Of a DNA stretch of 41,721 bases, positions 17,998 to 41,720 are shown one piece after another. The DNA comes from a bacterium (GTDB lineage: Bacteria > Desulfobacterota > Anaeroferrophillalia > Anaeroferrophillales > Tharpellaceae), in the NCBI GenBank assembly GCA_029932385.1, contig JAOZQE010000005.1, positions 1 to 41,721 of the forward strand, read 5' to 3'. A program made the translations under genes and the position numbers. The notes under the pieces were generated by a model that had not been told where the DNA came from, did not search any database, and was given only the letters and a program-made list of their open reading frames with translations. Position 1 is the stretch's first letter, and each line of letters opens with the position of its first letter.

Positions 17998-18699
17998 CTA
18001 CTTCTTCAATACCCGCCATGAACGTCGGCCTGATTTTGCCTCATAAATCCAGAAATTACCACTCGCCGTCCACAATTGCCGCAGCAATAACTCAGGCTGA
18101 CTCTGATTACTGCTACCTCTGGTTATTTCAACCAGGTAGAGATTAGCTGATGCGGACAAACCAGGCTGTAAATCAGGCCGAATCATACCTTCAGAGACAG
18201 CCTCGCTCCGGCTTATCTGGCGATCCTGAATAGTCAGATAAGACGCAAAACGGGCCGTGCCGACCTGCTCATAAGTAACAAATTCACGTTTTGTAGTTCC
18301 ATATACGAATGGCAGCGGCCGATTGAGCCAATCGCCAGGGATAATCGTATCGCTTAAAAGTACCGGCTTAGCCGAATCATACTGATTGGCACTACAAATT
18401 TCCTCATCATTAACCCAACGAAAACAGTCGGCCTGCTCCAAAGCCCAAACCGGGCTGAAATAGAACTCGGCCCGACAACCAACCTTCTGATCGCGATCCT
18501 CAACCGCAAATAAAAACCCATCCGCCCCGAGATTTTGCTGATTAAACCGCCAATGCACATTATTAACGGAACGACCCGGAACCAGGCTCTGATACTCAGA
18601 AACAATCGCATAGGAAAATTCGTTTTCGGCTTTTACAGCGGTAACATGCAATAATGGTATCAGCAATAAAATAAACAGAAAATAAAAATATCGCTTCAT
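17998..18699 (-). CDS. Exported hypothetical protein
   Basis: Sec signal peptide (MKRYFYFLFILLLIPLLHVTAVKA). Its ATG directly abuts the stop of the selenoprotein gene. Confidence 0.7.
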   Translation of the reverse strand: MKRYFYFLFILLLIPLLHVTAVKAENEFSYAIVSEYQSLVPGRSVNNVHWRFNQQNLGADGFLFAVEDRDQKVGCRAEFYFSPVWALEQADCFRWVNDEEICSANQYDSAKPVLLSDTIIPGDWLNRPLPFVYGTTKREFVTYEQVGTARFASYLTIQDRQISRSEAVSEGMIRPDLQPGLSASANLYLVEITRGSSNQSQPELLLRQLWTASGNFWIYEAKSGRRSWRVLKK

Positions 18700-20097
18700 T
18701 TATTTACTCTTCCCCGGCAAATCTTTACCGTGATTGACAATGGTCAAATCATGCTGATATGAAAAATCAGGATCGGTATCGTGGTTATGGCAATTGCGGC
18801 AACCCTTTTCGCTGACCGGAGTCATTCTCACCTCAGATGGAGCCTGGGCATGCTTACCTCCGGGACCATGGCACACTTCACACTGCACATTGGCCATCTT
18901 TGCGTTAACCTCCATCGAGACAAAGCCACCGACTGCATTCCTGTTAACCATTCCCGTAACATGACACACCAAACACTCAGGGTCATTTGCCTTGTTCTTT
19001 TTCTCAAGTGTATTAATGGCTCTGGCATGACGGGTTTTCTGCCAATTTTCAACAATTGACTGATGACAACTACCACACCAGTTACTGCCTAAATAGATAT
19101 TCACAGGCTTACGATTTTTCATGATTTTACGTTCTCGACGTTCACGCTTGGCCTTAATAATATCACGACGTTCTTTCCCATATTTCTCCACCAGAGCTTC
19201 CACCTGAGGGTCAGGTGTAACCTTTTCAGACACAACCCGGGTCAATACGGGTTGATCTACACTGAAACCTGCATCCTGACCGGCTCTTACGATATCAATA
19301 TAGGTAATATATTTGCCGCCAAAATTGCTGACAACAACTGGCTTGCCGGCAATAATTCTGGTTTTATTGTCGACCTTACCGGTCTCCCCATCGATAATCA
19401 GATCAGCATCCTTACCACAACCCGTGATAATTTCATGAATACGTTCGCCCTGGGCATGAACAATCAGAATAAAAATATCGTGTTTTATATTATTTTTAAT
19501 TCTGTTTACAGCTTTGATCGGGTCAGAAGCAACCACATCTTTAACCTCGAATAGATCCAGTAATTGTGGATCAATCACTGAAGTAACCAGGACCTTAAGT
19601 TTTCCGGAGTCTTTATTAAAACGTAGAAAAGGGACAAAATCTTCAACATTGGCACAAACCAGATCAGTTGCCGCCCGGTCAGCTACTTTATGAACCGTAT
19701 GCATATCCAACTTTGCATCCCAAGCTCCAAAACCGATAAGATCAAATTTATTGTAATCCATTGCGGCCATAATATACTTGAAATCAGTCTTGGCTAAAAA
19801 AGAATTATAATTCGCAATATTCCCGGCATTGATCATTATCGTCCGATCGAGGTCAGATTGTTGTAAAACTTGGCTAATAACCGTTGTACAGCGGGATAGA
19901 CCTCCCGCCTGATTACCGTGTCAACCACAGGGGGCGATATTGCCCTTGATGCCCCCGTAATAGAGAACTCGTAGCACACCATCGTCAGCCAACGGAGCAA
20001 CATTTGTCTTAAAAGCGGCACTGGCAATGGTTACTGACAGCAACAGAAAACAGCCTACCACTGCGATCTTGAAAAATCTCCATCCACATTTATTCAT
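18700..20097 (-). CDS. UshA-like selenoprotein fused to tetraheme cytochrome c (c554-like); UGA at 19921-19923 read as Sec; 465 aa
   Basis: ATG 20097 with GGAGA 8 nt upstream gives a signal peptide and ..IKGNIAPCG[TGA]HGNQAGGLSR.., in frame with the 18700..19836 ORF. A SECIS-like hairpin follows the UGA. Heme motifs are CGSCH, CLVCH, CEVCH and CRNCH. Confidence 0.88.
19889..19911 (-). promoter_or_regulatory. Bacterial SECIS-like hairpin
   Basis: mRNA CAG(G)CGGGA-GGUCUA-UCCCGCUG forms an 8-bp stem with one bulge. The apical loop begins with G, 18 nt after the UGA. Confidence 0.75.
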
Positions 20098-20148
20098 AAG
20101 CTAAGTCTCCGAACTATTTTCAAATTATAAAATTGTATCAAAAATTAT

Positions 20149-22578
20149 CTACCAACAGATGGCTGAAATCCTACTGGCTCCGTACATCGTTCCCAATATA
20201 GCCATGGCTGAAACATTTTCAGCCTGTTCAAGGTGCAGGGATCCTACTCCTTGAGCCATGGTTTCAGAACTGAACAAGGCCCCTACAGCATCACAGTATT
20301 TGGCCTGCGAACCAAGCTTGAGAATAACCTCTTCCAGCTCTTTACCATCAACCGCATAAGCCGTCAGTTTTATTTTCTGTTCAGTTTCGGCCCGATTGAT
20401 AAAAATCATGCCGGTCCACCAATAACTGTCACTTGCTATCTGAGGTAAATGTCGGGATGTTTCACTATGCATGGCTAAGAGCGGCAATGAGGCCGCGGAA
20501 TCACCCCCAAACTGGTAGGTCATAAAACCGGCAAACTCAGAGTCTGCGTGCAGACTCAACCAGGCCAAATTGATCTCCTCTTCACTGATTCCCCAGAGAG
20601 AACCATTCAGATCCAGTTCCACATGAGCAAAAGGTGCCAGATTAACAATATAATCTGCAAGTCCGGATACCTCAGAGTGACAGCGTAAAGTAACCACCAA
20701 ATCCTTCTCTGTAGGATTATAAAGTGAAAGTGTTGTACGCCAGCCGCTGCCGACCGCTGGATGAGGCAGTAACCACTCCTGAGCCAACTCAAGCAACGGC
20801 AATTGATCTTTAAGATAGTTCCCGGCACTCCGCAGAACCGCCCCGTCCAAACCGTTCCGCTCAGCATTAACCAGAGCCCAGCCGTTAACACTTATATTAT
20901 CAGGATAATCACCTTTTTCATATCGTACTATTTGCTCTCCGACCAGATTAACTTCCTGTTGCCGGTAAAATGTACCATCATCTTTATAATATCCTATGCT
21001 GACCTTATTCTCTTGATCATCAAGCTGAGCAAGATAGAGATCACTGCGAAACCGGGAATTGTAACGGCTGGTGAGCCAGGGGATGATCAGTCGTTTCGCC
21101 TGATTAACAGAACTTCTGGTAGAGCCGAAAAAGCGAGTCTCATCACCGACAAAGGTCAACCCGCACAAGGGTTCAGAGCTACTTACTTTCACGGCCAGCG
21201 GCTGATTTCCGAAACTGTAGTAATCTGTGACAATCGAGGTTGAGAGAACCGTTAAAAGTTGTTCATCCGCAGCCACATCTGCAAGTTTTCCCTCGCCATA
21301 AGGTAACCCTTTACTGCCAACCACTTCAATCCCGATCTTACCCTGATTCTCGATACTGGCCGCATTTCCCAACCAGTAACGACTGGTCGGAAAACCGTAA
21401 AACCAGTGCTGAAAAACCGCATCATAACTGGCGTAAAGCTGAACAGCATAACCGGTTTTATTCTCTTCATCCGGCTTCAACGTAAGCCGGTAAGTATCTT
21501 CAGCACTGTTTCCGGTAAGCGTAATTTCGTAAAGATTACGGTCAAGTTCCCGATCGACAACAACTTCTCCATCACGTTCGAGAATTACCCGCGCATGATT
21601 ACCGGCAACCTTCTGCCGATCGTAGGCAACCTTCAGTTTGATCGTTTCTCCATCCTGCAAATTTATAAAGAATACACGCGGGACAAGCGGTTGGAGCATT
21701 AACAGGTGATGCCCTGGTTTTAGTCGACTACCATAATACTCATCGTCGTGACTTAAGGCCATCTCCTTGACCACGTCATAATCTATAAACAGACGTTCGG
21801 GCCGCCGGGCAATCGGCACCCAGACAATATCAGGGTGATCCGCCATAGAAGCTCCGAGCCAGGAACCTCGACCTTTAATATAGTTGCCAGCTGCATCCTT
21901 ATCCAGTTTATAGGAGTAGTTTTTTTCAACTTCAACCGTTCCTTCATAGTCAGGAGGAATACCCTGATCGTTTGCGTGCCTGATTCGACATTGCACCTGA
22001 TCAGCATCGGCCCCGCGAACAATGGTCATCTCATAACTGTAGATGGGATAGGACCAGAATTCGTCGGAAATATCAAGATCAGCCGCAATTGCCTGGCCCT
22101 GTTCGCCGATATAGTTCAAGAGGTAACGGTGAAACGGTTCAGGGAAATAACAGTTTTCCCATAAAATTTCATCTTCCGCATGAATGGCCGAGAGAAGCCC
22201 TTTCTTATCTCCAACATTAAGGAAAATCTGGCGGGTTGCGGCCGGCTTAAAGTCCTGATGCTCAAGGATGGCGGCATTGGCCCAACCGTGACAGATTCCC
22301 CACCAATATGGAACATCGGGATCATGCCATGCTTCTTTTGCACTCTGGGTTGCGGCCGCCGGATAGTAACCACGGGTATAGAGATCATATTTTTCTATGG
22401 GCGAGGGGTGGCCATTGTAACCGTAGACAAGTTCACCCGACTGCAAAGGCCACCAGTATCCTGACCAGGGTTTGTGCGCGGCCTGGCCGCTCAAGGTTTC
22501 ACCATAAAGGGGCAATGCCAGAAACAGAACACTCACCAGAACCAATACGGCCCATATTCCGAATTTATTAATCATCAC
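20149..22578 (-). CDS. Exported transglutaminase-elicitor (GP42)-like protein with C-terminal repeated beta modules
   Basis: Signal peptide, then PWSGYWWP..SPIEKYD..WWGICHGWANAAILE..GDKKGLLS..EFWSYPIYSYE, which parallel Phytophthora GP42 motifs. The C-terminal half has about 4 degenerate W-x-G/T-L-x-x-x-N modules. Confidence 0.7.
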   Translation of the reverse strand: MMINKFGIWAVLVLVSVLFLALPLYGETLSGQAAHKPWSGYWWPLQSGELVYGYNGHPSPIEKYDLYTRGYYPAAATQSAKEAWHDPDVPYWWGICHGWANAAILEHQDFKPAATRQIFLNVGDKKGLLSAIHAEDEILWENCYFPEPFHRYLLNYIGEQGQAIAADLDISDEFWSYPIYSYEMTIVRGADADQVQCRIRHANDQGIPPDYEGTVEVEKNYSYKLDKDAAGNYIKGRGSWLGASMADHPDIVWVPIARRPERLFIDYDVVKEMALSHDDEYYGSRLKPGHHLLMLQPLVPRVFFINLQDGETIKLKVAYDRQKVAGNHARVILERDGEVVVDRELDRNLYEITLTGNSAEDTYRLTLKPDEENKTGYAVQLYASYDAVFQHWFYGFPTSRYWLGNAASIENQGKIGIEVVGSKGLPYGEGKLADVAADEQLLTVLSTSIVTDYYSFGNQPLAVKVSSSEPLCGLTFVGDETRFFGSTRSSVNQAKRLIIPWLTSRYNSRFRSDLYLAQLDDQENKVSIGYYKDDGTFYRQQEVNLVGEQIVRYEKGDYPDNISVNGWALVNAERNGLDGAVLRSAGNYLKDQLPLLELAQEWLLPHPAVGSGWRTTLSLYNPTEKDLVVTLRCHSEVSGLADYIVNLAPFAHVELDLNGSLWGISEEEINLAWLSLHADSEFAGFMTYQFGGDSAASLPLLAMHSETSRHLPQIASDSYWWTGMIFINRAETEQKIKLTAYAVDGKELEEVILKLGSQAKYCDAVGALFSSETMAQGVGSLHLEQAENVSAMAILGTMYGASRISAICW

Positions 22579-23036
22579 TTCTCTTTAATTTTATCAGTAT
22601 CAGATTTCCCGGAGACATCTGATTTTTTCTTCACAAACGGATTAATTGCAGATGCAGACGGCTTAATATACCAGTTATCAGTTTTCCAGACCCAGTTCAA
22701 CAGCAACGGCACTTTATTAAAAGTAAAACCCATCGCATTAATTTTATTCTCTATTTTAGTCTCTGCCTGCAAGCCGTCATCAGCAATCTTGATTGCGATA
22801 ATGGTGCTCTCTTTGACAACAATATTACCCCTTTTTACTCTTTCAGGTTCAAGATAAAGCTGGCGCAGCTGACCCAAATCATTTTTTTTACGGGCCTCAA
22901 TGTAGTTGTCAAGACGCTGTTTAAGAAGAATATTTTTATCAACCGGTTTCCCTCCAAGGCCGTTGCAGGCTGTAAATAAAAACGCCCCCAGTAAAATAAC
23001 GCAAAACCAGGTAACCCTCTTCTGATATATTTTCAT
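22575..23036 (-). CDS. Small lipoprotein (possible NTF2-like fold)
   Basis: Lipobox FTAC. GAGG lies upstream, and the stop overlaps the next start (ATGA). Confidence 0.7.
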   Translation of the reverse strand: MKIYQKRVTWFCVILLGAFLFTACNGLGGKPVDKNILLKQRLDNYIEARKKNDLGQLRQLYLEPERVKRGNIVVKESTIIAIKIADDGLQAETKIENKINAMGFTFNKVPLLLNWVWKTDNWYIKPSASAINPFVKKKSDVSGKSDTDKIKEK

Positions 23037-23220: not shown

Positions 23221-23256
23221 AAAAAAGGAGAGGCCTTATGGCCTCTCCTTTTTTTT
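23221..23256 (-). terminator. Rho-independent terminator after the Cys-rich gene (bidirectional form)
   Basis: AAAAAAGGAGAGGCC-TTAT-GGCCTCTCCTTTTTTTT. Confidence 0.9.
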
Positions 23257-23311: not shown

Positions 23312-24562
23312 CTACGGCTTAGGACAATAGCCACGTATTTTACTAACACCACAACCCTCGCATGCACCCTTTGGAACCAGGTAGCCCTGAGCTAATTCGA
23401 GACCGTAACCAATAGTTACATATCCCTGAAGCCCTTGGTCAGCTACGATCTTAGCATACATCGGCGCATCAGCCGGCAGAGCCAACTCAGACAGAATATC
23501 TCCGACATTCACAGCTTCGACACTCTTCGCATCAATCTCAAGAGTCTTGCTTGCACTCTCACCGTCAGCATAAAAAGTGATCGTTGCGGTTGTGCTTGTG
23601 GCATTAGCATTTGTCAGCGCAAGACCAGTCCACCAGCCTTCACCAAACGCCATATACGGCAGACACATATAACAATCACTTGTGAAGCATTCAGAGAACA
23701 CACCGATTTCAACCAGACATTCACACAGAATCTTACAAGCGCCGGCACAGATATCGTCATTGTCAGGCATCTCAACGATCTCAACCTTGATCTTAACGGC
23801 TACGCCGAGTTGAATATCTGCTTCATTCGGATCATAGACCAGAGTCGGAATGTCGATCAGAAGGATAGACTGCAGATTCGTCATCAGATTCGTGTAGCAG
23901 GTCTGAACTGCGGTCACCCGGTTATCGTCGCAGGTAAAACAGCAGTCATCATCATTATCGTCAATATCAAACAGAGTCTGACCTGCAGTCATCGAGTAAT
24001 AATCAAGGGCGATCTTGGTAGCATCATCATCACAAGGATCAAGACAGAAATCACCACCGGTTAAACTCGGATCTTCGAATGTACCAACCCGAATCGGATC
24101 ATCAGCAAGAGGGGCAGCATCGGGACAATCAATATTACTAGCATCATCATAGCAATCCATATCATCACGGGCGACGTTGGAATTAGTCCAGTAGACACCA
24201 CCGGCAGGTTCCATAATAGTCAGACGGATCGCGTAAGATCCAGAAGTAGTAAATTCATCGATCTTTTCACAATCACAGAGCTTGAAAATGATGCCTCTGA
24301 CATTATGCTCGTCACAATAATTACCACCATCATAGTTGCTACCAAGTTCGTAATCAAACGTCGGGCACGGGCATTTAGAACCCTGAACCGGTGCACATGC
24401 CTTCAATTCGATCTGCTGGCCATAAGTCCAGGGAGCCTTAGCATTTTTGTCACATACAGCCTGAACACAAGGTTCACCGATTATGTCCGCACTAAAACCA
24501 GCAGCCACGGTCGTCAAAACGAATGCCATGGCCAGCAACAAAATTAAACTACTTTTTCTCAT
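23312..24562 (-). CDS. Exported Cys-rich (26 Cys), Asp-rich protein; candidate surface-layer/structural subunit
   Basis: Signal peptide, 26 Cys counted by hand, no CxxCH, and a C-terminal LPYM..GWWTGLALTN module. GGAGG lies upstream, and the gene has its own promoter and terminator. Confidence 0.75.
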   Translation of the reverse strand: MRKSSLILLLAMAFVLTTVAAGFSADIIGEPCVQAVCDKNAKAPWTYGQQIELKACAPVQGSKCPCPTFDYELGSNYDGGNYCDEHNVRGIIFKLCDCEKIDEFTTSGSYAIRLTIMEPAGGVYWTNSNVARDDMDCYDDASNIDCPDAAPLADDPIRVGTFEDPSLTGGDFCLDPCDDDATKIALDYYSMTAGQTLFDIDDNDDDCCFTCDDNRVTAVQTCYTNLMTNLQSILLIDIPTLVYDPNEADIQLGVAVKIKVEIVEMPDNDDICAGACKILCECLVEIGVFSECFTSDCYMCLPYMAFGEGWWTGLALTNANATSTTATITFYADGESASKTLEIDAKSVEAVNVGDILSELALPADAPMYAKIVADQGLQGYVTIGYGLELAQGYLVPKGACEGCGVSKIRGYCPKP

Positions 24563-24865
24563 CTGTTTCCTCCATTGTTTGTTAGCGATCTCCCTAAAAA
24601 GAGGGTAGATCTTTAAAAAAACTACAATTAAAAATAAAACACTTACACTTAAAATTTAGACCAAAACATTATTGGGGTAAGCTCTTACCCCGCGACACTA
24701 ACCTTCAGATTATCCTAACCTCAACCCCACCTCCTTTTTTGATCCCTCAAGCTACGCATCCTCTTAATAAATGCTGGAGTTAACGGCTCGGAGGGTCTTC
24801 GGGTCAGCCAGCGGGTCGTTTGGCATTACCCTGCTACCGACTATTAAACGATTCTAGAACGCCAT

Positions 24866-24893
24866 ACTATACGAGTCGCAATTTATTTGTCAA
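24866..24893 (-). promoter_or_regulatory. Near-consensus sigma70 promoter for the Cys-rich gene
   Basis: On the - strand: TTGACA (24893-24888), 16 nt, TATAGT (24871-24866), with AT-rich sequence upstream. Confidence 0.6.
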
Positions 24894-27323: not shown

Positions 27324-27375
27324 GCAATATCTCCATTCCGCGATTTATTACCAACGCATCAAGGTCAATCATATT

Positions 27376-28230: not shown

Positions 28231-28255
28231 GCTCTTCCTCTAATACCCTTAGAGA

Positions 28256-28822: not shown

Positions 28823-28887
28823 TTCACAAAAGAAATTAAAAGATTCTCAATGGCTTGCCGGCTTAAGCCGGCAGCTTCTTACCCGGG

Positions 28888-32436: not shown

Positions 32437-32968
32437 CCTGTTCGGTTAATTTTATTCCACCGGTTAAAGAATCGACCTCTAAAACAGCTTGACGGCGGCC
32501 ACTTTTTAGCAATAAAGGTTCACCGGAAGCACCGCCATCGGCATAAAATGTAAAGAGAATAATCTGGGGTGCGGGTTTAGTCTCATCATCTTCCGCCACT
32601 TCCAACTCGTGCTCCGCTGCGGCCAACGCCGTCGCTTGCGCTGCGGAGAGCACCAGTTCCGCCGGAGCCGTCAGAATCATTTGTCGGCCGCGCAACTCCT
32701 CACTGAACTGTTTTTTTTTCGGATTAAAGCGGCAGATATTCGTCCGCCGCTCTAAAATTGCATAGCTTCGCGCAACCTTCAAAAAAACATGGAGCTCGCG
32801 CAGATTCGTACGCCAGCGGAAAGCCTCCCGCTGACGATAGTTAATACCTAAAAACAGGCTTAACCCCATTCCCATAACGGCGACCACAACAATCAGCTCC
32901 ACCAGGGTAAAAGCCCGGGAGTCGGAAACAGCATCGGAATTGTGCGGACAATGAGGTCGGATTCGCAT
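32414..32968 (-). CDS. gspH: T2SS minor pseudopilin H
   Basis: RA|FTLVELIVV, ARSYAI, FYADGGASG and VDSLTG, which are GspH/FimT-like. Confidence 0.8.
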   Translation of the reverse strand: MRIRPHCPHNSDAVSDSRAFTLVELIVVVAVMGMGLSLFLGINYRQREAFRWRTNLRELHVFLKVARSYAILERRTNICRFNPKKKQFSEELRGRQMILTAPAELVLSAAQATALAAAEHELEVAEDDETKPAPQIILFTFYADGGASGEPLLLKSGRRQAVLEVDSLTGGIKLTEQVADASIQ

Positions 32969-32982
32969 TAATTATCTTTACT

Positions 32983-33411
32983 TCAATTTTCCCAGCTGTT
33001 GACATCGGCCTGATCGCCATCACCACCGGACTGACCTCCAACACCGTATGAACTTAAATCATAGTCCCCGTGATCGCCCGGACTCTTATAATCATATTTG
33101 TTGCCCCAGGGATCATTAGGAATCGGTTTCGGCATGTAGGGACCATCCCAGTTTTTTGTTCCTTCAGGTTTAACCCGCAGGGCCTCAAGGCCCTGAGCGG
33201 TAGTCGGATAAAGATCGTTGTCAAGCCGGTAGGAGTCAAGGGCGGTACCTAAAAGCTCGATCTGAGCCCGGGCGGTTTTACGTTTAGCCCCGGCCACTTT
33301 CTTGAACATTGTGGGGGCCACCAGGGAGGCCAGCAAACCGATAATTACCATAACAATCAACAGTTCAATCAAGGTAAAACCTTGATTTTTAAGTTTTTTT
33401 CGTTCGCGCAT
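32983..33411 (-). CDS. gspG: T2SS major pseudopilin G
   Basis: QG|FTLIELLIVMVIIGLLASLVAP, ALDSYRLD..YP...GL.AL, WDGPY and DPWGNKYDY. AAGGAG supports ATG 33411. Confidence 0.95.
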   Translation of the reverse strand: MRERKKLKNQGFTLIELLIVMVIIGLLASLVAPTMFKKVAGAKRKTARAQIELLGTALDSYRLDNDLYPTTAQGLEALRVKPEGTKNWDGPYMPKPIPNDPWGNKYDYKSPGDHGDYDLSSYGVGGQSGGDGDQADVNSWEN

Positions 33412-33439
33412 TTTTATCTCCTTAAAATTTATTGCCACT

Positions 33440-34738
33440 TTAACCGCCCAGTTCATTAACGCTGAAGATTGCCATCAGCATCGAAACCACGATGGCGCCG
33501 ATGACCAGCCCCATAAAGAGGATAACCAGAGGTTCAAACAGAGAGGTTAAAGCTTTAATTGTAACTTTTAATTCACGGTCGTACATTTCGGCCAGTTTTT
33601 CAAGCATCTCATCGAGATTACCGGTCTCTTCACCAACCCCGATCATATGCACTGCCAATGAAGGGAAAATCGGATCAGCGGCGAGGACCTGAGAGATAAT
33701 CGCGCCCTGCCGCAACTCATTCTGAAGATGGGCCACTTTCTGTTCCAGAATCTGATTATTGATAACTCCGCCAACCACCTGCAGAGCTTCAAGGATAGGT
33801 ACGCCGCTGGCCAGCATGGCCCCTAACGTCCTGAAAAAACGGGCCAGATCCATCTTGATAAAAATGCTGCCGAAGAGCGGCAGACGCAGCTTGAAACGGT
33901 CGATCAACAGACGCCCCTGCGAACTGCGATAAAATTGACGGTAGCCCCAGATTGCGAAGATAACCCCCAACCCTAAAGCCCACCACCAGCTCTGCATAAA
34001 ATTACCGCAACTAAGCATCAGACGGGTGGCGGTCGGCAGGGCCACGCCCATATCGGAGAAAATCGCCGCAAATTTAGGTAAAACAAATGCCAGCAGGAGA
34101 ATAATTGAGGCTCCAGTTGTCAGCGTCAGAACCAGAGGATAGATCATCGCTCCGATCAGAAACTCTTTCAACTCCCGAATACCATTCAGATAGAGAGCAA
34201 GCCGGCCCAGAGCCGTATCCAGAATCCCGCCGCTCTCTCCGGCCCGGACCATGCCGATAAAAACCGGAGGGAATATCTGGGGATGGCTGCCCAGAGCCTC
34301 CCAGAAAGTGCTCCCCTCTTTAACCTGCTCACGCAGACTCTCCATAACCCGGCTGAAAAGTGGTTTTTCCACCAGTTCAACCAGAATTACCAGGGCCCGG
34401 TTCAGCGGAACTCCAGCTTTAAGGAGAAGGCCCAGATCTTCCGCAAAGCCAGCCAGTTCCTTGACTCCGGGACGGCGCCAGGGCATCTTATCGAGCCATT
34501 CGGAAAATTCCGGCATTGATCTGCCGGAGATTTTAAACCGCTGTGGCTTAGCTCTGGCAGGAGTATATGCGGCTCCCGGTACAACTTCTGCGGAGCTGTT
34601 GTCCGCAGCGGCAATCCGCAACGGAATCAGGCCCTGACGTTGCAACTGAGAGGCCGCCTGACGCTCGTCCGGTGCATGCAAACGACCGGAACTGACTTCG
34701 CCTCCGGGACTTGCCGCCTTATAACTGAACTCCGGCAT
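33440..34738 (-). CDS. gspF: T2SS inner-membrane platform protein F
   Basis: LLKAGVPL, MVRAGESGG.L, AMIYP, VGEETGNLDEML and EPLVIL. Confidence 0.95.
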   Translation of the reverse strand: MPEFSYKAASPGGEVSSGRLHAPDERQAASQLQRQGLIPLRIAAADNSSAEVVPGAAYTPARAKPQRFKISGRSMPEFSEWLDKMPWRRPGVKELAGFAEDLGLLLKAGVPLNRALVILVELVEKPLFSRVMESLREQVKEGSTFWEALGSHPQIFPPVFIGMVRAGESGGILDTALGRLALYLNGIRELKEFLIGAMIYPLVLTLTTGASIILLLAFVLPKFAAIFSDMGVALPTATRLMLSCGNFMQSWWWALGLGVIFAIWGYRQFYRSSQGRLLIDRFKLRLPLFGSIFIKMDLARFFRTLGAMLASGVPILEALQVVGGVINNQILEQKVAHLQNELRQGAIISQVLAADPIFPSLAVHMIGVGEETGNLDEMLEKLAEMYDRELKVTIKALTSLFEPLVILFMGLVIGAIVVSMLMAIFSVNELGG

Positions 34739-34740
34739 CG

Positions 34741-36420
34741 CTAAGCCCCGCTCACACGTACAACCTCTTCAAGCGAGGTTATGCCGGCCTTAACTTTGGC
34801 CCAACCGTCATCACGAAGCAGGGTCATACCATTTGCTACCGCATGCTTACGCAAAACCAGGGAGCTTTGGCTATCAAGAATCAGAGAACGCACCGCGTCG
34901 GTTACCGGCAGCAACTCAAAAATTCCGACCCGCCCGCGGAAACCGGAAAAGGAACACTCCTTACATCCTTTAGGACGATAGACCGGTTCACTTTCACTTA
35001 CGGCAAAGGGCAATTTAAGCCGCTGCAAAACTGCGGCATCAGGCACAAAAGCCTCCTTGCACGCGGGACAGAGCACCCGAACCAGGCGCTGAGCCATAAT
35101 CGCCACCAGTGAGGAGGAGAGCAGATAATCTTCAACGCCGATCTCAACCAGCCGGGTTATGGCCCCGGCAGCATCATTTGTATGCAGGGTGGAAAAGACC
35201 AGGTGTCCGGTCAAAGCTGATTGAATCGCAATGTCAGCGGTCTCCCGGTCGCGAATTTCACCGATCAGAATAACATCCGGATCCTGACGGACAATTGAAC
35301 GCAGACCATTGGCAAAACCTAAGCCCGCCTTGCTGTTGACTTGAACCTGGTTAATCCCGTCAAGTTCATACTCGACCGGATCTTCAATCGTAATAATCTT
35401 CTTATCAATCGCATTAATCGTATTGAGAGCGGCATAGAGAGTGGTTGTCTTGCCGGAACCGGTCGGCCCGGTAACCAGAATAATCCCGTAGGGCAGACGG
35501 ATCATCTCTTCGAAAGCCTGGCGTTCGGCCTCAGGAAAACCCAGGCTACCGAGACTGAATGAGATATTTGTACGGTCGAGAATACGCATGACCACGCTCT
35601 CACCGTAGACCGTCGGCAGACAAGAGACCCGGAGATCGATATCCTTACCGGAAATTTTTATACGGATCCGGCCGTCCTGGGGCAGACGGCGCTCAGCAAT
35701 ATCCATCCGCGCCATAATCTTGATCCGGGAGATAATTGAGGACTGGATATGTTTCGGTGGAGTCGCATGCTCCCTTAAGACCCCGTCAACCCGGAAACGA
35801 ACCTGAAGATTCTCGGCCAGAGGCTCAATGTGAATATCACTGGCCCCCTCCTCCACCGCCTTAGTCAAAAACTGATTGACCAGTTTAATAATCGGCGCTT
35901 CGGAAGCAAGATCCCGCAGATGATCGACATCATCACCCAGGCCGACAACTCCATCAAGCTCGGACGAATCGTCTGTTCCGGTACTCTCGGCATCGCTTTC
36001 AGCCCCGATAAAACTGGCTTTAATCCAGGCGCCAATCTTCTCTTCACGAGCCAGAATAAGCTCTATCCGCCGGCCCGGAAAAAGCTGCCGGAAGGTTTCT
36101 AAGACCAGATGATCATAGGGATCATTGACGGCTACCACCAGGGCTGGGTCACCGCCCAAAGGAAAACAGCGATGCTCTTCTAAAAAGAGCGGCGAGATAT
36201 CGGCAAAGGGGGCAATATCATAATCTGCAGGCAGTTCACTTATCTGCCGCAGATTAAGCTCTTCTGCTACCAGAGTCAGAAAATCCTCTTCCGAAACCAG
36301 ACCGAGACGAATGGCAAGCCGGTGCAAAGCTTCGCGTTCACGACCGCTGGGCTTGATTTTTTTTAAGTCCGTCGCGGAGATCAATCCCCGCTCGACCATT
36401 ACTTCGATAATGCCGGCCAT
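34741..36420 (-). CDS. gspE: T2SS ATPase E
   Basis: ASDIHIEP, MDIAERRLPQDG, Walker A GPTGSGKTT, TIEDPVE, RQDPDVILIGEIRD, TGHLVFSTLHTN, and the CPAC/CKEC Zn motif. Confidence 0.96.
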   Translation of the reverse strand: MAGIIEVMVERGLISATDLKKIKPSGREREALHRLAIRLGLVSEEDFLTLVAEELNLRQISELPADYDIAPFADISPLFLEEHRCFPLGGDPALVVAVNDPYDHLVLETFRQLFPGRRIELILAREEKIGAWIKASFIGAESDAESTGTDDSSELDGVVGLGDDVDHLRDLASEAPIIKLVNQFLTKAVEEGASDIHIEPLAENLQVRFRVDGVLREHATPPKHIQSSIISRIKIMARMDIAERRLPQDGRIRIKISGKDIDLRVSCLPTVYGESVVMRILDRTNISFSLGSLGFPEAERQAFEEMIRLPYGIILVTGPTGSGKTTTLYAALNTINAIDKKIITIEDPVEYELDGINQVQVNSKAGLGFANGLRSIVRQDPDVILIGEIRDRETADIAIQSALTGHLVFSTLHTNDAAGAITRLVEIGVEDYLLSSSLVAIMAQRLVRVLCPACKEAFVPDAAVLQRLKLPFAVSESEPVYRPKGCKECSFSGFRGRVGIFELLPVTDAVRSLILDSQSSLVLRKHAVANGMTLLRDDGWAKVKAGITSLEEVVRVSGA

Positions 36421-37823
36421 GCCCGAGCCTCCCCTAAAGCCAGCAGAAAGAAACAGAACATACGGCTGTAAGCCATCTGCATGGGAAATGAGAAAAACAT
36501 AATCACCGAAAATGCGGTCAGCGAAGCTAATATCGGCAAACGCCAGTCTTCGCCATCATCATCCGCCCTGGTTGAATATCGCAAAAGATAAAATTGCCGC
36601 CCCCAGAGCAACAGAAAGAGCAATAGGGCGGGGATACCACATTCTGCCGCCAGTTGCAAATAGTCATTATGAGCTTTACGAACCTGCATCTTATAACTAT
36701 AGAGCGGGTCATAAGCAAAACTCTTGAAATAGAGCGGATAATTATAAGACCAGTTACCGAGGCCGACCCCTAAAAACGGATGATCTTTGATCATCATCAA
36801 AGAGTTACCCCAGTGATAATAACGACATTCAAGCAGACGCGCAATACCTCCCCGTTGAAATTTATTAAAACTCCTCTTAACCCGTTTACGACTGTTGGGA
36901 AAAACCATAATCAGGCTGGCGATAACTATCAACATAAGCAAGCTGATCACCAGTAAACGCCCACCTCTTCGCACCTGACTTACTGATTCTTTAACCTCTT
37001 TTTTACGGCTCATAAACCAAAACAGAGGCACCACCAAAGCTTCTAACATCAGTGCCAAAATTGCCACCCGAGAATAATTCATAAAGAGCAGAATCAGAGC
37101 TGCAGACCCTAAAAATAGAAAAGCTATAAAAAAGATTAATTGAGGAACTCTTTTTGAGCTTCGCCACAGATGCCAATGACGCCCAGCTGCAAAAAGAACA
37201 AAAGGAATTACCAGAGCAATAAAATGGGCCGCTGGATTACGATAACCGAAGGTTGAAGCGGGACCCAGAATTGTCATCAAAAAAGGAAATTTATAACCTG
37301 TCGATTGAATCAAACCTAAACCTGAAAAGATCAACAAGCTCGTCAATAAAGCGTAAACTGCAACCCAGCGTAATCGGTTCTGCTGAAACAGATGAGCCAG
37401 TATAAATCCCAGAATCACCAATAGGATGTAATTTACCAAGAAATAAAGACCCGCCTTTACCACCAAACTTCCGGAAAGCGAAAAAGCCATCACCATCAGG
37501 AGCAGAAGAAAGATTTTTACCCCTAGATTTCGGCGCATAAAATTGATACAGGATTCCAGCTGAGAGACTTTGCGATAAATGTAAATACAGTAAAATAAAC
37601 CCAGTAAAGGTATAAAAGCAGAAATATAGATAATCTTGGGAAGATCATAAACAGTACACAAAATCCGGCCTTCAGGAGTATACCCTGAGATAAAAATAAG
37701 TGGCGTACTCACAAAAAAGACTATTAGCAACCAAGGCCATACTGTTCGCGACCAAAAATCAAAAACTATTACAGGTTCCGAAGCTACAGATTTTTTTCGG
37801 GAGGTTTTGATCTTCGCTTTCAC
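36399..37823 (-). CDS. O-antigen ligase / O-oligosaccharyltransferase (Wzy_C) family membrane protein
   Basis: About 12 TMs. Motifs STFGYRN, SR.AIL, R...W......DHPFLGVGLGNW, AHNDYLQLAAECG and FFSFP. Confidence 0.85.
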   Translation of the reverse strand: MKAKIKTSRKKSVASEPVIVFDFWSRTVWPWLLIVFFVSTPLIFISGYTPEGRILCTVYDLPKIIYISAFIPLLGLFYCIYIYRKVSQLESCINFMRRNLGVKIFLLLLMVMAFSLSGSLVVKAGLYFLVNYILLVILGFILAHLFQQNRLRWVAVYALLTSLLIFSGLGLIQSTGYKFPFLMTILGPASTFGYRNPAAHFIALVIPFVLFAAGRHWHLWRSSKRVPQLIFFIAFLFLGSAALILLFMNYSRVAILALMLEALVVPLFWFMSRKKEVKESVSQVRRGGRLLVISLLMLIVIASLIMVFPNSRKRVKRSFNKFQRGGIARLLECRYYHWGNSLMMIKDHPFLGVGLGNWSYNYPLYFKSFAYDPLYSYKMQVRKAHNDYLQLAAECGIPALLLFLLLWGRQFYLLRYSTRADDDGEDWRLPILASLTAFSVIMFFSFPMQMAYSRMFCFFLLALGEARAWPALSK

Positions 37824-38332
37824 TTGGCGCTCCGTGTTACTCGCTGATTTTCACGTTCCAATTCTACCCAAACCGGGAGCAGAGATTTTTTAAGAGGATA
37901 AATTGAACGGCTTTTCTGTAAAACTGTAAAAGCTTTTTTATTTTCTCCAAGACGGTAAGCGCAACTTCCTATAGATGTCAGGAACAAGATTGAAAGCGGA
38001 TCACCTGATAATCCCTCCTCATAACACTTCAGAGCCGCACGAAGCCGGCCTGACTGTTGATAACTATTACCGGCAGTCAAATAAGCTCTACAGATACGCG
38101 GGTAGTAACCACTATATTGAGCTCCTTTCTGCCAGGCTTGTACAGCTCTCCGGTAATCGTATCCGGCTTCCAGCAGTCGGCCCTGACGTAAGGCTGCTTC
38201 AGCAGCTTTGAATCGAGCTTCCATATGAACTATCTGTAGCCGTCGGCTAACGGTACTGATCCCAAACCAGCTCAAACCCAGAAAGACCAGGAAAAAAAGA
38301 GCCGCAACGATTAATACAGATTTTCGTTTCAT
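37820..38332 (-). CDS. Membrane-anchored TPR protein
   Basis: An N-terminal TM and TPR-like helices (AYLTAGNSYQQSGRLRAALKCYEEGL..DP). It overlaps both neighbours by 4 nt. Confidence 0.7.
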   Translation of the reverse strand: MKRKSVLIVAALFFLVFLGLSWFGISTVSRRLQIVHMEARFKAAEAALRQGRLLEAGYDYRRAVQAWQKGAQYSGYYPRICRAYLTAGNSYQQSGRLRAALKCYEEGLSGDPLSILFLTSIGSCAYRLGENKKAFTVLQKSRSIYPLKKSLLPVWVELERENQRVTRSAK

Positions 38333-39075
38333 CTCTTAAATAACCACGAAGACCACAACTGCCAGCGATGTAAACGAAACAGAACTCCCATCGCCAGACA
38401 TCCGCAACCATACTTCAGGCTCCGCCTGAAATTGATTGATGAAGCTTCAGGAAAATATTTAGTCGGACAACTTACTTCACCGATAATATAACCTAAATTA
38501 TGAATCTGCACCAGAATCTGATTGTCAAAAATAAAATCATCGGAGTTACGATGCAGCGGCAGCTGCCGCAGAAGAGAGGCTGAATAGGCTCGATAACCTG
38601 TATGAAATTCAGAAAGTTTCGTACCCAGGAGAATATTTTCCAACAATGTCAGAATCCGGTTAGCTAGATATTTCCACCAAGGCATACCTCCAGCCCGAGC
38701 CCGTCCACCCAGAATCCGCGAGGCCAGAACACAGTCATAGAGACCACTACCGATCATGGCTGCCATCACAGGAATCAACAGCGGTGTATACTGGTAGTCA
38801 GGATGCACCATGATCACAATATCGGCACCTGCCTTAAGGGCCCGCCGATAACAACTTTTCTGGTTGGCACCATAGCCTAAATTACACTGATGCCGTACAA
38901 GTTCTGACTTGGGTAGTTCGGCGGCAATCTTGGCGGTCGCATCAGAACTATAGTCATCGACAATTACAACCTGATCGACGATCTTCTGTGCCATGACCTC
39001 ATTGTAGGTTTTCACCAGAGTCGATTCTGCATTATAGGCCGGCATGACTACGACCACTTTTTTATCTCGATACAC
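38329..39075 (-). CDS. GT2 glycosyltransferase (DPM1/polyprenol-phosphate glycosyltransferase-like)
   Basis: VVMPAYN, VDDYSSD, NLGYGANQK, HPDYQY and SEFHTGYRAY. Confidence 0.88.
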   Translation of the reverse strand: MYRDKKVVVVMPAYNAESTLVKTYNEVMAQKIVDQVVIVDDYSSDATAKIAAELPKSELVRHQCNLGYGANQKSCYRRALKAGADIVIMVHPDYQYTPLLIPVMAAMIGSGLYDCVLASRILGGRARAGGMPWWKYLANRILTLLENILLGTKLSEFHTGYRAYSASLLRQLPLHRNSDDFIFDNQILVQIHNLGYIIGEVSCPTKYFPEASSINFRRSLKYGCGCLAMGVLFRLHRWQLWSSWLFKR

Positions 39076-39081: not shown

Positions 39082-40899
39082 TTACCCCCCTGAACCGACT
39101 TTTTTAGCCTGCAGACGCTTGAGCTGCATAAGATTGTATTGGGCCTGCTTATTACCCGGATCCAGCTGCAAGGCATAAGATAACTGCCGGGAAGCTGCCG
39201 TTAACTGACCCTGATGCGCCAGGGCGATGCCTAAATTGATATGGGTTTTTACATGATAGGGTCTAAGCTTAAGAGCTTTATTAAACAACGGCACCGACTC
39301 CTCGGTCTGACCTTTATGCAGTAAAATAGTAGCCAGATTATAATTAACTGCGGACGAGGCGGGGGCAAACGACAGAGCCTGGCGGAGAATTTTCTCAGCA
39401 TCATCAAGGCGATGTTCTTTTTTTCGCATTAACGCAAAGGCAACAAAAGCATCAATTTCTCTAATCTCCGGCTGCATCGCTTTCCGGTAGACTTCCTCGG
39501 CCTCCTGATTACGACCCTGCTCCTGCAAAGCATTGCCCCAATTAAGCAGAGCCTGACCAAAACGTGAATTCAGCTGCATAGCCCGGGAAAAAATTGGATC
39601 TGTTTCCGACCAGCGTTTTTCCTTCGCCAGGGCCTGACCCAGCAGATTGTAGGCGACCGGATTATTTTTATCCATTTTAACGGCCCGCTGAAAAAGAGTT
39701 ACGGTATCATGCCAGTAATGGGTCTGCTGCCAACTTAAGATCAGATAAAAAAATGCGGCCGCAATCACGGCCCCCGTAACCCAGCGCCGCGACCTTGCCG
39801 GAGACACTGCCGCCCCGAACCAGACCAGTGCCAGCCAAAATCCAATTGCTGGAATATAGGTATAACGATCAGCCCAGGCTTGGCCACCGACTTGCACCAG
39901 ACCAATCACCGGCACCAACGTCCCGACAAACCAGCACCAGCCTACGAGAAGAAAAGGGTAGCGCTTACGCTCACGAAAGACAAAGTAGAAAATGCCGCAA
40001 AAACCAATGCCGGAAATCACGATCCGCAACCAGGAATAATCAATCCGGTAACGATAAAGAACGGCCAGATTCTGAGGCCAGAACTGCAGCTTTACATATT
40101 CGCCGTAAGCCACCAATGCATTAACCACACGCGGCCCAATCCCAAGCTCAGCGGCGGAACTAACCGCACCAGCCTGACGTTGAGCTATAAATGTCAATAT
40201 CGCAGAAAATAAGATAAGAATAAAAAAGGGAAATTTTTCCAGAACCAACCGTTTAATTCCGGTTTTGGGATAACGTTGCAGAGGCCAGTAATCCAACAAG
40301 AACAGAAGAAACGGCAGGGTTACAGCCATAGGCTTGGCCATTAAGGCGCAGGCGGCACTGAACAGAGTCAGCAGGTAATATTGCCAACTCATCCGCTTTG
40401 CGTAGAAAGTATAGAGGATCAACGTCAACAGCCAGAAAAAAGCACAAAGCAGATCTTTGCGTTCCGCAATCCAGGCAACAGATTCGACTCGTAAGGGGTG
40501 CCAGGCAAACAACACCGTCACCAAAATGCTGCGCCAGAGTCCGCCGCGCCAACAACGGTTCAAGAGAAAAAAAAGCAAGCTCACATTGGCAAGATGCCAG
40601 GCAACTGAAGCAAGATGATGAGAGCCGCTCTTTAAGCCAAAAGCACTGACATCAACCATATGGGAAATCCAGGCCAGAGGATGCCAGTTAGCGGCATAGA
40701 AGGCTGTAAAAGACCATTTCACAGCCGCCCAGCTCAGACCATTGTTAACAACAGGATTATTAACTATATATTCAGCATCATCAAAACCGACAAAGGCAAA
40801 ATCATGCACCTGCCAGTAGGCCGCAAGGAGACCGGATAAAATTATCAATAGAGCCGGAAACGGTCTTAGTTCTCCATTTTTGATAATAAAGCCAGGCAC
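39082..40899 (-). CDS. TMTC-like GT-C membrane glycosyltransferase with C-terminal TPRs
   Basis: FVGFDD..YIVNNP (DD motif), NWHPL, HPLRVESVAWIAERKD, AKPMA and ADRYTYIP, followed by about 5 TPRs. Confidence 0.8.
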   Translation of the reverse strand: MPGFIIKNGELRPFPALLIILSGLLAAYWQVHDFAFVGFDDAEYIVNNPVVNNGLSWAAVKWSFTAFYAANWHPLAWISHMVDVSAFGLKSGSHHLASVAWHLANVSLLFFLLNRCWRGGLWRSILVTVLFAWHPLRVESVAWIAERKDLLCAFFWLLTLILYTFYAKRMSWQYYLLTLFSAACALMAKPMAVTLPFLLFLLDYWPLQRYPKTGIKRLVLEKFPFFILILFSAILTFIAQRQAGAVSSAAELGIGPRVVNALVAYGEYVKLQFWPQNLAVLYRYRIDYSWLRIVISGIGFCGIFYFVFRERKRYPFLLVGWCWFVGTLVPVIGLVQVGGQAWADRYTYIPAIGFWLALVWFGAAVSPARSRRWVTGAVIAAAFFYLILSWQQTHYWHDTVTLFQRAVKMDKNNPVAYNLLGQALAKEKRWSETDPIFSRAMQLNSRFGQALLNWGNALQEQGRNQEAEEVYRKAMQPEIREIDAFVAFALMRKKEHRLDDAEKILRQALSFAPASSAVNYNLATILLHKGQTEESVPLFNKALKLRPYHVKTHINLGIALAHQGQLTAASRQLSYALQLDPGNKQAQYNLMQLKRLQAKKVGSGG

Positions 40900-40960: not shown

Positions 40961-41007
40961 AAAAAAAAATATCACCATAAAAAACTGTTTTTTTATGGTG
41001 ATATTTT
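40961..41007 (-). terminator. Terminator after the edge gene
   Basis: Inverted repeat AAAATATCACCATAAAAAAA-CTG-TTTTTTTATGGTGATATTTT, with a T-run on the - strand. Confidence 0.75.
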
Positions 41008-41078
41008 CCTAATAACATTCCAGCTTAAACAAGAAGATAATTCTTCTCAGCCGACAAAACAAATTGACTTAAAATAAC

Positions 41079-41720
41079 TTACTCAAGGCCAACGACGAGA
41101 GGTGCAGACAAAGGCGGCAAGGCCTCCAGCTCCTCCATAGGATAGCCGTCATCTTCATAGTTACGCCCATTGAAAATGACTCCGACGATATCATGCTCAG
41201 CCGTAAAACTGATCGAGGCCGCCATTTTGATATCTTTGCCTTCAAACAAAGCGTTTATTTCACTGAGCAACTGTCCGTTAGCAGGAATGTCTCTGCTGAT
41301 TTCGGCCAGTTCCTTCCCGGCAGCATCATAAGCAGTCAATGTAACTGTATTCTTAACCGTACCGGGATTATTCAACAACAGCCCACTCCAGCCCCCTTCC
41401 TCACTTGAACGCAGAGGAGAAAAGAGACCGCTACGACTCCGCAAAGCTCCGGTTGAAACTGAGGCCAGCTGCCGATAATCAGATGTTCCGAAAAACTCCA
41501 TTCCGGCAATTGGCGTATCCGCCTGCACCTGCAACCAGCCAACACCATCAGGCACAAGGTCGTGAGATGCGATACTTTGGCTTTGCAATTCACCCAGCGA
41601 GAGCCCGGGAAGCGTAAGTGCTACCGGATTCTTATCACCTATATAACCGGTTAAAGTTATATTGTTGGCCTCAGCTTGAGGATTATAAAAAGCAAGGCCG
41701 CCCCACCAGCCGGAACCGTC
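41079..41720 (-). CDS. C-terminal part of a protein with tandem WWxG-module repeats (5' end outside window)
   Basis: The frame is open to the window edge: DGSGWWGGLAFYNPQAEANNITLTGY...GGWSGLLLNNPGTVKNTVTLTAYDAAGKEL... Confidence 0.75.
   Translation of the reverse strand, partial: DGSGWWGGLAFYNPQAEANNITLTGYIGDKNPVALTLPGLSLGELQSQSIASHDLVPDGVGWLQVQADTPIAGMEFFGTSDYRQLASVSTGALRSRSGLFSPLRSSEEGGWSGLLLNNPGTVKNTVTLTAYDAAGKELAEISRDIPANGQLLSEINALFEGKDIKMAASISFTAEHDIVGVIFNGRNYEDDGYPMEELEALPPLSAPLVVGLE

Follow-up and report, generated by a model that had tools for sequence, protein, structure and literature searches.

The contig JAOZQE010000005.1 of the metagenome-assembled genome (MAG) GCA_029932385.1, analysed here over its full length of 41,721 nucleotides ("the window" below), carries on its minus strand a real, conserved and hitherto undescribed envelope cassette of five genes, encoding a cysteine-rich secreted protein (cys416), a small lipoprotein (lip153), a papain-fold protein (tg809), a UshA-like selenoprotein and a secreted protein of no known family (p233). 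The cassette recurs in nine loci outside the order Tharpellales, and a literature search found no publication that links its parts. In the window it follows the operon of a type II secretion system (T2SS) and a group of glycan genes, and by breadth of conservation the locus falls into three layers: the cassette core, the T2SS that stands upstream of it in the order only, and the periplasm-facing glycan genes. We favor reading the locus as an envelope or surface-protein system, in which an abundant Cys-rich secreted protein would be matured by the cassette enzymes and, in Tharpellales, exported by the adjacent T2SS; at a probability of about 45%, this reading is a tentative one.

The MAG represents Candidatus Tharpella, an uncultured organism from deep-sea sediment, and comprises 2.35 Mb in 206 contigs at 89.6% completeness, one of which, C131, is the window. 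According to the passages of PMC9213671 that introduce the group, Candidatus Tharpella was named from the Auka and Guaymas hydrothermal sediments and is a deep-branching lineage of the Desulfobacterota. The terms "secretion system", "selenocysteine" and "S-layer" are absent from the main text of that paper.

Recurrence of the cassette outside the order

The nine loci, found through homologues of tg809, come from Desulfococcus, Desulfosalsimonadaceae, Syntrophales, Syntrophaceae, Desulfobulbia, an unclassified delta-proteobacterial MAG and three further genomes of the phylum. Neighboring genes were assigned with hidden Markov models (HMMs), judged against a background of about 13,000 open reading frames (ORFs), and by all-against-all BLAST clustering. 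Beside the tg809 homologue, a p233-like gene occurs in all nine loci and a lip153-like gene in eight, while a UshA-like gene and a gene for a Cys-rich protein with the module discussed below are each present in six; further neighbors are a CAP-domain protein (5/9), Wzm/Wzt (4/9), the membrane protein PMT_TPR (3/9) and a T2SS (1/9). Since two of the nine contigs are shorter than 4 kb, these counts are lower bounds. The gene order is rearranged between lineages, which argues for selection on linkage rather than for shared ancestry of the block.

The first-pass annotation of this DNA had taken the genes of the locus to be functionally linked. This view is borne out for the five downstream genes by their recurrence as a cassette, and within the order by the arrangement of T2SS, cys416 and cassette, which is kept in two families. 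Of the co-occurrence that it expected across related genomes, the part concerning the cassette genes and PMT_TPR was found outside the order, whereas the T2SS accompanies them there in a single locus. The CAP/SCP-domain protein, predicted to be secreted, is encoded in five of the loci by ORFs of about 500 amino acids (aa) upstream of the Cys-rich gene; no homologue of it was found in the window genome.

The cassette proteins and their shared module

Mature cys416 consists of 391 aa (42 kDa, pI 4.05), with a Cys content of 6.6%. In its AlphaFold2 (AF2) model, which has a predicted local distance difference test score (pLDDT) of 83.9, an N-terminal Cys-rich beta-sandwich region is followed by a C-terminal module with the fold of TM1070 and of the Anabaena sensory rhodopsin transducer (ASRT), and by a flexible tail that also bears Cys. 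The 26 Cys counted in the first-pass annotation are indeed present in the 416-aa precursor, and an alignment of 33 homologues shows 11 of them to be invariant and five nearly so. The 42 homologues found are all unnamed proteins, none of which carries a Pfam domain, and a comparison of the N-terminal region with the ESM Atlas yielded no usable match. A two-copy complex prediction for residues 26-416 scored 0.00, which, in a run without controls, speaks neither for nor against self-association.

Judged from its sequence signals, cys416 appears to be a transcription unit of its own, with a predicted promoter, a leader of about 300 nucleotides (nt) and a strong terminator-like hairpin just past the stop codon (Table 1). 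The promoter is identical in orthologous loci. The leader, itself single-copy, finds matches in 11 of 18 other genomes of the family, including two other genera, with one copy in each; the ten matches longer than 200 nt show 78-94% nucleotide identity, and wherever the contig continues they are located just upstream of the cys416 orthologue. Invariant blocks of 30 nt and several GGA-containing stretches stand out within it. A comparison with Rfam gave no family at the gathering threshold, nor at E values up to 10, RNAalifold proposed 56 pairs with no compensatory change, and the fold energy was no better than that of shuffled sequences (z -0.30). A riboswitch in the form of a structured leader is therefore not supported, and the element may rather be a protein-binding leader or a control region that acts at the DNA level.

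With ten ribosomal-protein genes as reference, the codon adaptation of cys416 is 0.732; none of the 25 window genes compared has a higher value, and in a set of 1044 long ORFs it corresponds to the 98.7th percentile. Among orthologues the signal peptide is almost invariant, whereas the mature protein is only 32-75% identical; the idea that cys416 alone is hypervariable was rejected, as divergence is about equally fast over all of the downstream block. Together, promoter, leader, terminator and codon adaptation are consistent with high expression, and the product is probably an abundant secreted protein. Many MAG contigs end inside or beside cys416 orthologues (eight genomes). Assembly contigs from three of four DNA runs cover the stretch and branch at positions 24576, 24489 and 24687/24688, which suggests strain-level variation of mature cys416 beside shared leader and signal-peptide sequence. 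The summed depth of these contigs, all of them short, is higher over the bins of leader and signal peptide, which we take to reflect conserved segments that strains or species living together have in common; contig depth cannot rank genes, and it was not used as a measure of expression.

The module at the C-terminus of cys416 is present in five copies in the window, distributed over the truncated gene at 41079-41720, cys416 and tg809 (BLASTP E values of 1e-5 to 5e-13, and HMM). Comparison of the modeled residues 295-400 of cys416 with solved structures gave a Z score of 14.5 with 1NC7, Thermotoga TM1070 (root-mean-square deviation 2.2, 102 aligned of 116), the next unrelated row having a Z score of 6.5; with 2II7, the Anabaena sensory rhodopsin transducer, the Z score was 10.9. 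Residues 490-599 of tg809 likewise matched 1NC7 (Z 12.2). An HMM built from the five local copies recovered the module in six or more additional ORFs outside this contig, where it is C-terminal and usually in tandem, behind unrelated N-terminal domains, and a database search with 13 modules found at least 218 proteins. Among the 120 matches listed, the module is accompanied by an S8 peptidase in 12, a C1 peptidase in four, a rhodanese domain in three and, according to precomputed annotation, PF18986 (DUF5719) in 14, and other carriers listed are beta-helix proteins, a cellulase and others. It is probably related to DUF5719, although at the sequence level only one of the 13 modules matched that family (E 0.078); our literature search found no publication that mentions DUF5719.

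On the basis of these models we regard the module as a widespread TM1070/ASRT-fold domain of secreted proteins. TM1070 and ASRT are small cytoplasmic proteins, whereas here the fold appears as a tandem C-terminal module of proteins that are secreted. That proteins on both flanks of the T2SS share one module, as first noted, is correct, but the module is not specific to the locus. Since it occurs genome-wide on secreted proteins, it points to an extracytoplasmic or surface location and to no private link between the flanking genes, and its use as a mark of the unity of the locus was rejected.

The UshA-like protein is, as described in the first-pass annotation, a fusion of a selenoprotein with a P-C-G-U motif to a domain with four CxxCH motifs, encoded in an operon with lip153, tg809 and p233. 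Its reading frame runs through a single TGA, which is kept in four of four orthologues. A SECIS-like hairpin lies 14 nt past the UGA (dG -22.3, z -3.18, with none of 200 shuffles as stable), and SelA is encoded in the genome (E 8.6e-154). By far the best family is NF041198 (E 1.6e-54), and the C-terminal domain matches Cytochrome_C554 (E 6.4e-16). The four UshA-like genes of distant cassettes that could be read through all have an in-frame TGA at the homologous site and NF041198 as their best family (E 2.5e-30 to 3.5e-48), and all four lack the haem domain; three of them end with Cys as the last residue. Elsewhere in the window genome, contigs C52 (17364-18686) and C78 (287-1591) carry paralogues, namely a second UshA-like/haem protein, 30% identical including its N-terminal part, and a further relative of the haem domain. 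The metal-binding motifs of UshA-type phosphoesterases appear to be replaced around the selenocysteine, in a comparison by eye with what we take to be the motif positions, and this apparent loss of metal ligands makes SoxB-type hydrolysis unlikely.

The window protein shares with NF041198 (CxU) and NF049981 (family 2) the CxU motif, the conserved in-frame TGA and a UshA/SoxB-like scaffold. It differs from them in its score of 185.4 bits, which is below the equivalog cut-off of 275, and in its constant neighbors, which are a new context for these families. UshA-like (seleno)protein families are listed with neither a function nor a gene context in the relevant parts of PMC13188914, and as COG0737 UshA-like in those of PMC2398784.

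For tg809, the N-terminal 260 residues align in four colinear segments with GP42 of Phytophthora sojae (PDB 3TW5; E 9.4e-10), and the Pfam family TGase_elicitor is matched with 58.7 bits against a cut-off of 25. Unlike GP42, the protein continues with a PPC/GOLD-like domain (residues 283-388, Z about 11) and TM1070/ASRT-fold modules, of which the HMM places two in residues 606-802. All 17 homologues keep Cys96, the residue that falls on the active-site position of 3TW5 in the alignment, and most of them also keep His150 and His248. In GP42 the catalytic His is the residue directly after the Cys ("CH" motif), according to the passages of PMC10318531 on its mechanism; the window protein has this His, yet it is found in no more than three of the 17 homologues. 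The AF2 model, based on five sequences, has a pLDDT of about 22-30 over residues 20-180, such that no active-site geometry can be read from it. The earlier label of a GP42-like transglutaminase thus stands as a statement of homology and less so as one of activity: the chemistry may be transamidation, proteolysis or amidase action. As the CH His is kept in so few homologues, and as cys416 has no invariant Lys or Gln across its homologues, the isopeptide cross-linking that had been proposed is a guess.

TGase_elicitor homologues from outside the Desulfobacterota share only the N-terminal 250 residues, with no other window gene in their flanks, and our literature search found no publication that joins a transglutaminase elicitor with this phylum. 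A survey of 400 genomes of the phylum with the Pfam model found seven at E 1e-5; it missed known orthologues, such as that of genome G008, and was used only for three further loci. Neither lip153 nor p233 gave a Pfam match or a PDB sequence relative. An assignment of p233 to DUF3108, for which the ESM Atlas had provided a weak lead (0.93, with recognition below the mark), was dropped after a Pfam scan of ten family members gave no confirmation.

The secretion and glycan genes upstream

All large ORFs between 41720 and 17998 lie on the minus strand, in agreement with the about 24 kb of co-oriented genes noted initially, every listed item of which was present. In the direction of transcription, the 3' end of a module-protein gene is followed by genes for PMT_TPR, a glycosyltransferase (GT) of family GT2, a small tetratricopeptide repeat (TPR) protein and a Wzy_C-family protein, then by gspE, F, G, H, I, J, K, an L-like gene, gspM, a gene for a 284-aa protein and gspD, and finally by cys416, lip153, tg809, the selenoprotein gene and p233 (Table 1). 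The glycan genes run straight into the T2SS operon, as had been observed, since the 3' end of the Wzy_C gene overlaps gspE by 22 nt.

Table 1 Features of the locus, in the direction of transcription (positions in the window)
Feature	Position	Strand	Basis
Secreted module protein, 3' part, with two C-terminal TM1070/ASRT-fold modules	41079..41720	-	Module HMM, two domains
PMT_TPR, multi-pass membrane protein with C-terminal TPRs	39082..40899	-	TPR families, E 1e-20
GT2 glycosyltransferase, polyprenyl-phosphate sugar synthase type	38329..39075	-	PF00535, E 5.6e-20
Small TPR protein, N-terminal hydrophobic segment	37820..38332	-	TPR_16, E 2.1e-12
Wzy_C-family membrane protein (O-antigen ligase, polymerase or O-oligosaccharyltransferase type)	36399..37823	-	PF04932, E 2.8e-23
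T2SS operon: gspE, F, G, H, I, J, K, L-like, M, 284-aa protein, gspD	25089..36420	-	Pfam, Xps order
Predicted sigma-70-type promoter of cys416	24866..24893	-	TTGACA, 16 nt, TATAGT; 11/12 hexamer positions match
cys416 leader, about 300 nt	24563..24865	-	Conserved across three genera
cys416, Sec-signal protein, 416 aa, 26 Cys	23312..24562	-	ORF, AF2, HMM
Intrinsic-terminator-like hairpin, strong, bidirectional	23221..23254	.	15-pair stem, A/T runs; just past cys416 stop
lip153, small lipoprotein, invariant lipobox Cys	22575..23036	-	Family alignment
tg809, secreted GP42/TGase_elicitor-like papain-fold protein with PPC/GOLD-like beta-sandwich and TM1070/ASRT-fold modules	20149..22578	-	Pfam, PDB, AF2, HMM
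UshA-like selenoprotein with tetrahaem cytochrome c554-like domain	18700..20097	-	P-C-G-U, TGA 19921-19923
p233, secreted 233-aa protein, no known family	17998..18699	-	Family alignment
Terminator-like hairpin, closing the lip153-tg809-selenoprotein-p233 operon	17932..17971	-	16-pair stem and T run

The T2SS genes are well recognizable by their Pfam matches: T2SSE (E 3e-146), T2SSF (6e-57) and T2SSG (1.1e-37), N_methyl on the three consecutive small proteins H, I and J, T2SSK_1st (2.8e-12) among the minor pseudopilins, PilN on the gspL-like product (6e-12), T2SSM_b on GspM (2.1e-9), and Secretin (2.3e-50), Secretin_N and the GspD N0 domain (2e-10) on the secretin. The 284-aa protein (27376-28230), in the position of GspC or GspN, has no Pfam match and is kept alongside the operon within the order. 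A gene for the prepilin peptidase GspO is not part of the locus, and no genome-wide search for GspO was made. When all Gsp proteins of the window were used in tblastn searches of the MAG, the only other homologues found were GspE/F of the type IV pilus kind and one secretin; since these are distant and without any further Gsp match, they are read as type IV pilus-like.

Within the genus, the full order from PMT_TPR over T2SS and cys416 to p233 is covered across loci from seven other genomes; no single contig spans it, and many stop at cys416. The T2SS proteins are 78-91% identical between these genomes and those of the downstream block 31-75%. In G021, a genome from another family of the order, gspK to gspD are followed after 660 nt by a cys416-like gene at the contig end, and a second contig starts with lip153, tg809, the haem-bearing selenoprotein and p233, arranged as in Tharpella; genes for PMT_TPR and a module protein are found on it as well. 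The adjacency of T2SS and cassette is thus real at the level of the order, in two families.

With respect to the glycan genes, the TPR array of PMT_TPR covers residues of about 390-600 (TPR_2 5.9e-21, and others), and the matches in a PDB sequence search are confined to this part. The multi-pass residues 1-390 match PMT_2 with an E value of 0.01. The product is probably a GT-C glycosyltransferase of the PMT_2/TMTC-like type, and the sugar acceptor may be a protein, as the first-pass annotation proposed, or a glycan. It resembles the TMTC and PMT protein O-mannosyltransferases of the GT-C class in its multi-pass N-terminal domain followed by C-terminal TPRs, and in its neighborhood to a GT2 gene similar to polyprenyl-phosphate sugar synthases; it differs from them in its PMT_2 match, which stays at 16.5 bits, below the cut-off of 26.1. 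The best NCBIfam matches of the GT2 protein are PpgS, AglJ, dolichyl-phosphate hexose transferase and ArnC, all below their cut-offs. The pairing of a sugar-donor synthase with a GT-C enzyme is the known logic of ArnC/ArnT and of Ppm1/PMT. The Wzy_C protein is related to PDB 7TPG, a polysaccharide polymerase/ligase (E 4.5e-7).

The right end of the window (41720) shows an exact overlap of 55 nt with the end of contig C29, and the frame of the module protein runs across it. The 5' part of this gene is found on C29 as an open frame of 703 aa with a MopE-type metal-binding motif (Pfam PF11617). C29 further contains Wzm/Wzt homologues and a run of GT1/GT4, WbsX, GT2 and epimerase genes. Independently of the C29 overlap, a contig of genome G015 has the orthologue of the last glycosyltransferase/epimerase gene of C29 directly upstream of PMT_TPR. 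From the overlap and this arrangement it follows that the locus is the distal end of a Wzm/Wzt O-polysaccharide cluster. The module gene occupies positions 8125-10233 on C29 (L050) and contains a run of N; the joined frame would have about 900 aa, with the MopE-type motif and the module repeats. In G015, no module gene lies between the glycan cluster and PMT_TPR.

Positions 1-17998 of the window carry unrelated housekeeping genes, including those for a GDP-mannose-type nucleotidyltransferase, ilvD and two acetyl-CoA synthetases. A gene of the mannose-1-phosphate guanylyltransferase type (4502-5578, +) lies on the other strand, 12 kb from the locus; it might supply a sugar donor, with no evidence of linkage. 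Four ORFs at 62-1351, 2251-4041, 5757-6965 and 6977-8146 (+), of 389-596 aa, matched no Pfam family at E 1e-5.

Competing readings and relation to known systems

For an envelope or surface-protein system we infer the export route, the substrate relations, glycosylation, cross-linking, anchoring and layer formation as follows. With a strong promoter and a leader of its own, the cys416 gene would yield large amounts of protein, which would reach the periplasm by the Sec route. There, the about 16 conserved cysteines of cys416 could undergo oxidation, reduction or another modification by the selenoenzyme, and in the Tharpella order this enzyme might exchange electrons through its four haems. The papain-fold protein tg809 would process or cross-link cys416, the T2SS would take it across the outer membrane, and the TM1070/ASRT-fold module could hold it at the cell surface, possibly on the neighboring polysaccharide.

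Several findings weigh against this reading. The T2SS cannot be called dedicated, as the first-pass annotation did, since it is the sole canonical one found: tblastn revealed no second canonical T2SS in the 89.6%-complete MAG, and the adjacency may reflect a general secreton. It adjoins the cassette in only one of the nine loci outside the order, and in the relative G019, whose genome is 98% complete, flagellin genes lie downstream of the secretin orthologue and no cassette was found. The synteny within the genus carries little weight, since close relatives do not count as independent cases, and searches of several genomes of the genus, many of them 61-78% complete, did not reveal the cassette. 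Residues 30-290 of cys416 gave a Z score of only about 6.5, with Ig-like folds of pilins and adhesins, which is in the common range of the tool. To these points must be added the subthreshold score of the selenoprotein in its best family, the poor conservation of the GP42-type His in tg809 homologues, the lack of an invariant Lys or Gln in cys416 and its high Cys content, considered below.

The alternative that deserves most attention, even though we hold it to be unlikely, is a periplasmic cassette for the handling of sulfur, selenium or metal. Here cys416, rich in Cys, would serve as a carrier or store, with sulfur species or metal ions bound by its flexible tail or by its many CxC/CxxC sites, and the selenoenzyme would act on these and pass electrons through its haems, with tg809, lip153 and p233 as accessory proteins and with T2SS and glycan genes unrelated. 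The UshA-like domain matches SoxB, with an E value of 4.7e-9 for the window protein and of 8.6e-12 to 1.3e-19 for the distant homologues, but the apparent loss of the metallophosphoesterase ligands, noted above, speaks against a SoxB-type hydrolysis. SoxY has a Cys-bearing C-terminal arm, of which the tail of cys416 is reminiscent: in the family this tail is modeled with low confidence (pLDDT 35-37) and has a conserved G-x-C-G-C-G/C motif, which is, however, absent from the distant Cys-rich homologues. Nine short C-x(0-4)-C motifs in cys416, the MopE-type metal-binding motif on the upstream module protein and the eight of nine outside loci in which no T2SS adjoins the cassette would all suit a carrier. 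For the Tharpellota genomes, the relevant passages of PMC9213671 report no identified terminal reductase and propose a sulfur compound as electron acceptor. On the other hand, a carrier has no obvious need for a 300-nt leader, a surface-type module and a papain-fold partner with four modules, and the repeated glycan-cluster context stays unexplained.

A general secreton with ordinary cargo is, in our estimation, a rather unlikely explanation. The T2SS would then export many module-bearing hydrolases for feeding, among them tg809 as a protease or amidase, and cys416 would serve in adhesion or binding, while the glycan genes would make an unrelated O-antigen or exopolysaccharide. This agrees with the status of the T2SS as the only canonical one found in the MAG, with the presence of the module on at least six other ORFs on other contigs and, in the database, on peptidases, beta-helix proteins, a cellulase and others, and also with the large O-polysaccharide cluster upstream and with a polysaccharide polymerase/ligase as best solved relative of the Wzy_C protein. 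The cargo block is also less conserved than the T2SS (32-75% versus 78-91% identity), and such faster divergence is typical of extracellular proteins. What such a secreton does not explain is why cys416-, p233- and lip153-like genes and genes for selenocysteine-containing UshA-like proteins accompany tg809 in distant orders, why PMT_TPR stands beside the cassette in three of the nine outside loci and in G021, and why cys416 has special expression signals.

Very improbable is an extracellular structure for electron transfer or redox sensing, in which the T2SS would export haem selenoprotein and Cys-rich protein, the two making up a redox-active assembly at the surface: the T2SS-dependent placement of outer-surface cytochromes in metal reducers is a precedent, and the tetrahaem c554-like domain fused to the selenoprotein in the order, the paralogues on C52 and C78 and the terminal electron acceptor of the clade, unresolved in the consulted parts of PMC9213671, would fit, but the haem domain is missing from all four distant cassette selenoproteins read through, so that haems do not belong to the core, no haem motif occurs in cys416, and Pfam and NCBIfam scans of the locus detected no genes for an outer-membrane conduit.

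Within the favored reading of an envelope or surface-protein system, a more specific question is whether cys416 forms a surface layer (S-layer). S-layer proteins are acidic and of 40-200 kDa, and the pI of 4.05 and the 42 kDa of cys416 fit these properties; its 26 Cys do not, as classical S-layer proteins contain, to our knowledge, little or no Cys, compared with 6.6% in cys416. An S-layer is plausible, but the claim is weaker than that of an envelope system because of this high Cys content and because the T2SS is not dedicated. We consider it quite doubtful that the cassette specifies an unknown type of surface layer or sheath, in which a Cys-rich beta-sandwich subunit would be locked covalently by the selenoenzyme and the GP42-like enzyme and tethered to the O-polysaccharide via the TM1070/ASRT-fold modules. 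As part of this equally doubtful proposal, the selenoenzyme would be a metallophosphoesterase scaffold re-purposed for Cys/selenocysteine redox chemistry and wired with haems in Tharpellales. If such a sheath exists, it would provide the first biological role for UshA-like selenoproteins, which have been catalogued since 2008 without a function.

Even short of this, the UshA-like selenoprotein families gain constant partner genes and thereby testable substrates, in a gene context that appears to be new. A conserved envelope cassette is defined in genomes of Syntrophales, Desulfobacterales-type, Desulfobulbia and Tharpellales, giving a first handle on the cell surface of the uncultured Tharpellota, and the leader of about 300 nt is a candidate new regulatory element.

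The closest known arrangement is the A-layer locus of Aeromonas salmonicida and A. hydrophila (sps/aps and vapA). For A. salmonicida, PMC4483657 describes, in the passages on this locus, that the T2SS genes for the S-layer and vapA are inserted between wzm and wzt. The first-pass annotation took the combination in the window to be undescribed. That judgment is too broad for a glycan cluster with a T2SS and a surface-layer gene, which those passages already report, but it can be upheld for the cassette, for which no publication linking the parts was found. In both cases a T2SS run from E over F, G, H, I, J and K to L is followed by the gene for one acidic secreted protein of about 40-50 kDa, and the whole set lies within an O-polysaccharide cluster of the Wzm/Wzt type (PMC4483657, same passages). 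The differences are that the T2SS of the A-layer is a second, dedicated one, whereas no other canonical T2SS was found in the Tharpella MAG, and that cys416 is Cys-rich; the Aeromonas passages of PMC4483657 mention no papain-fold enzyme, no selenoprotein and neither of the two small proteins. An Aeromonas-type arrangement of O-polysaccharide genes, T2SS and the gene for a putative surface protein exists, it appears, far outside the Gammaproteobacteria.

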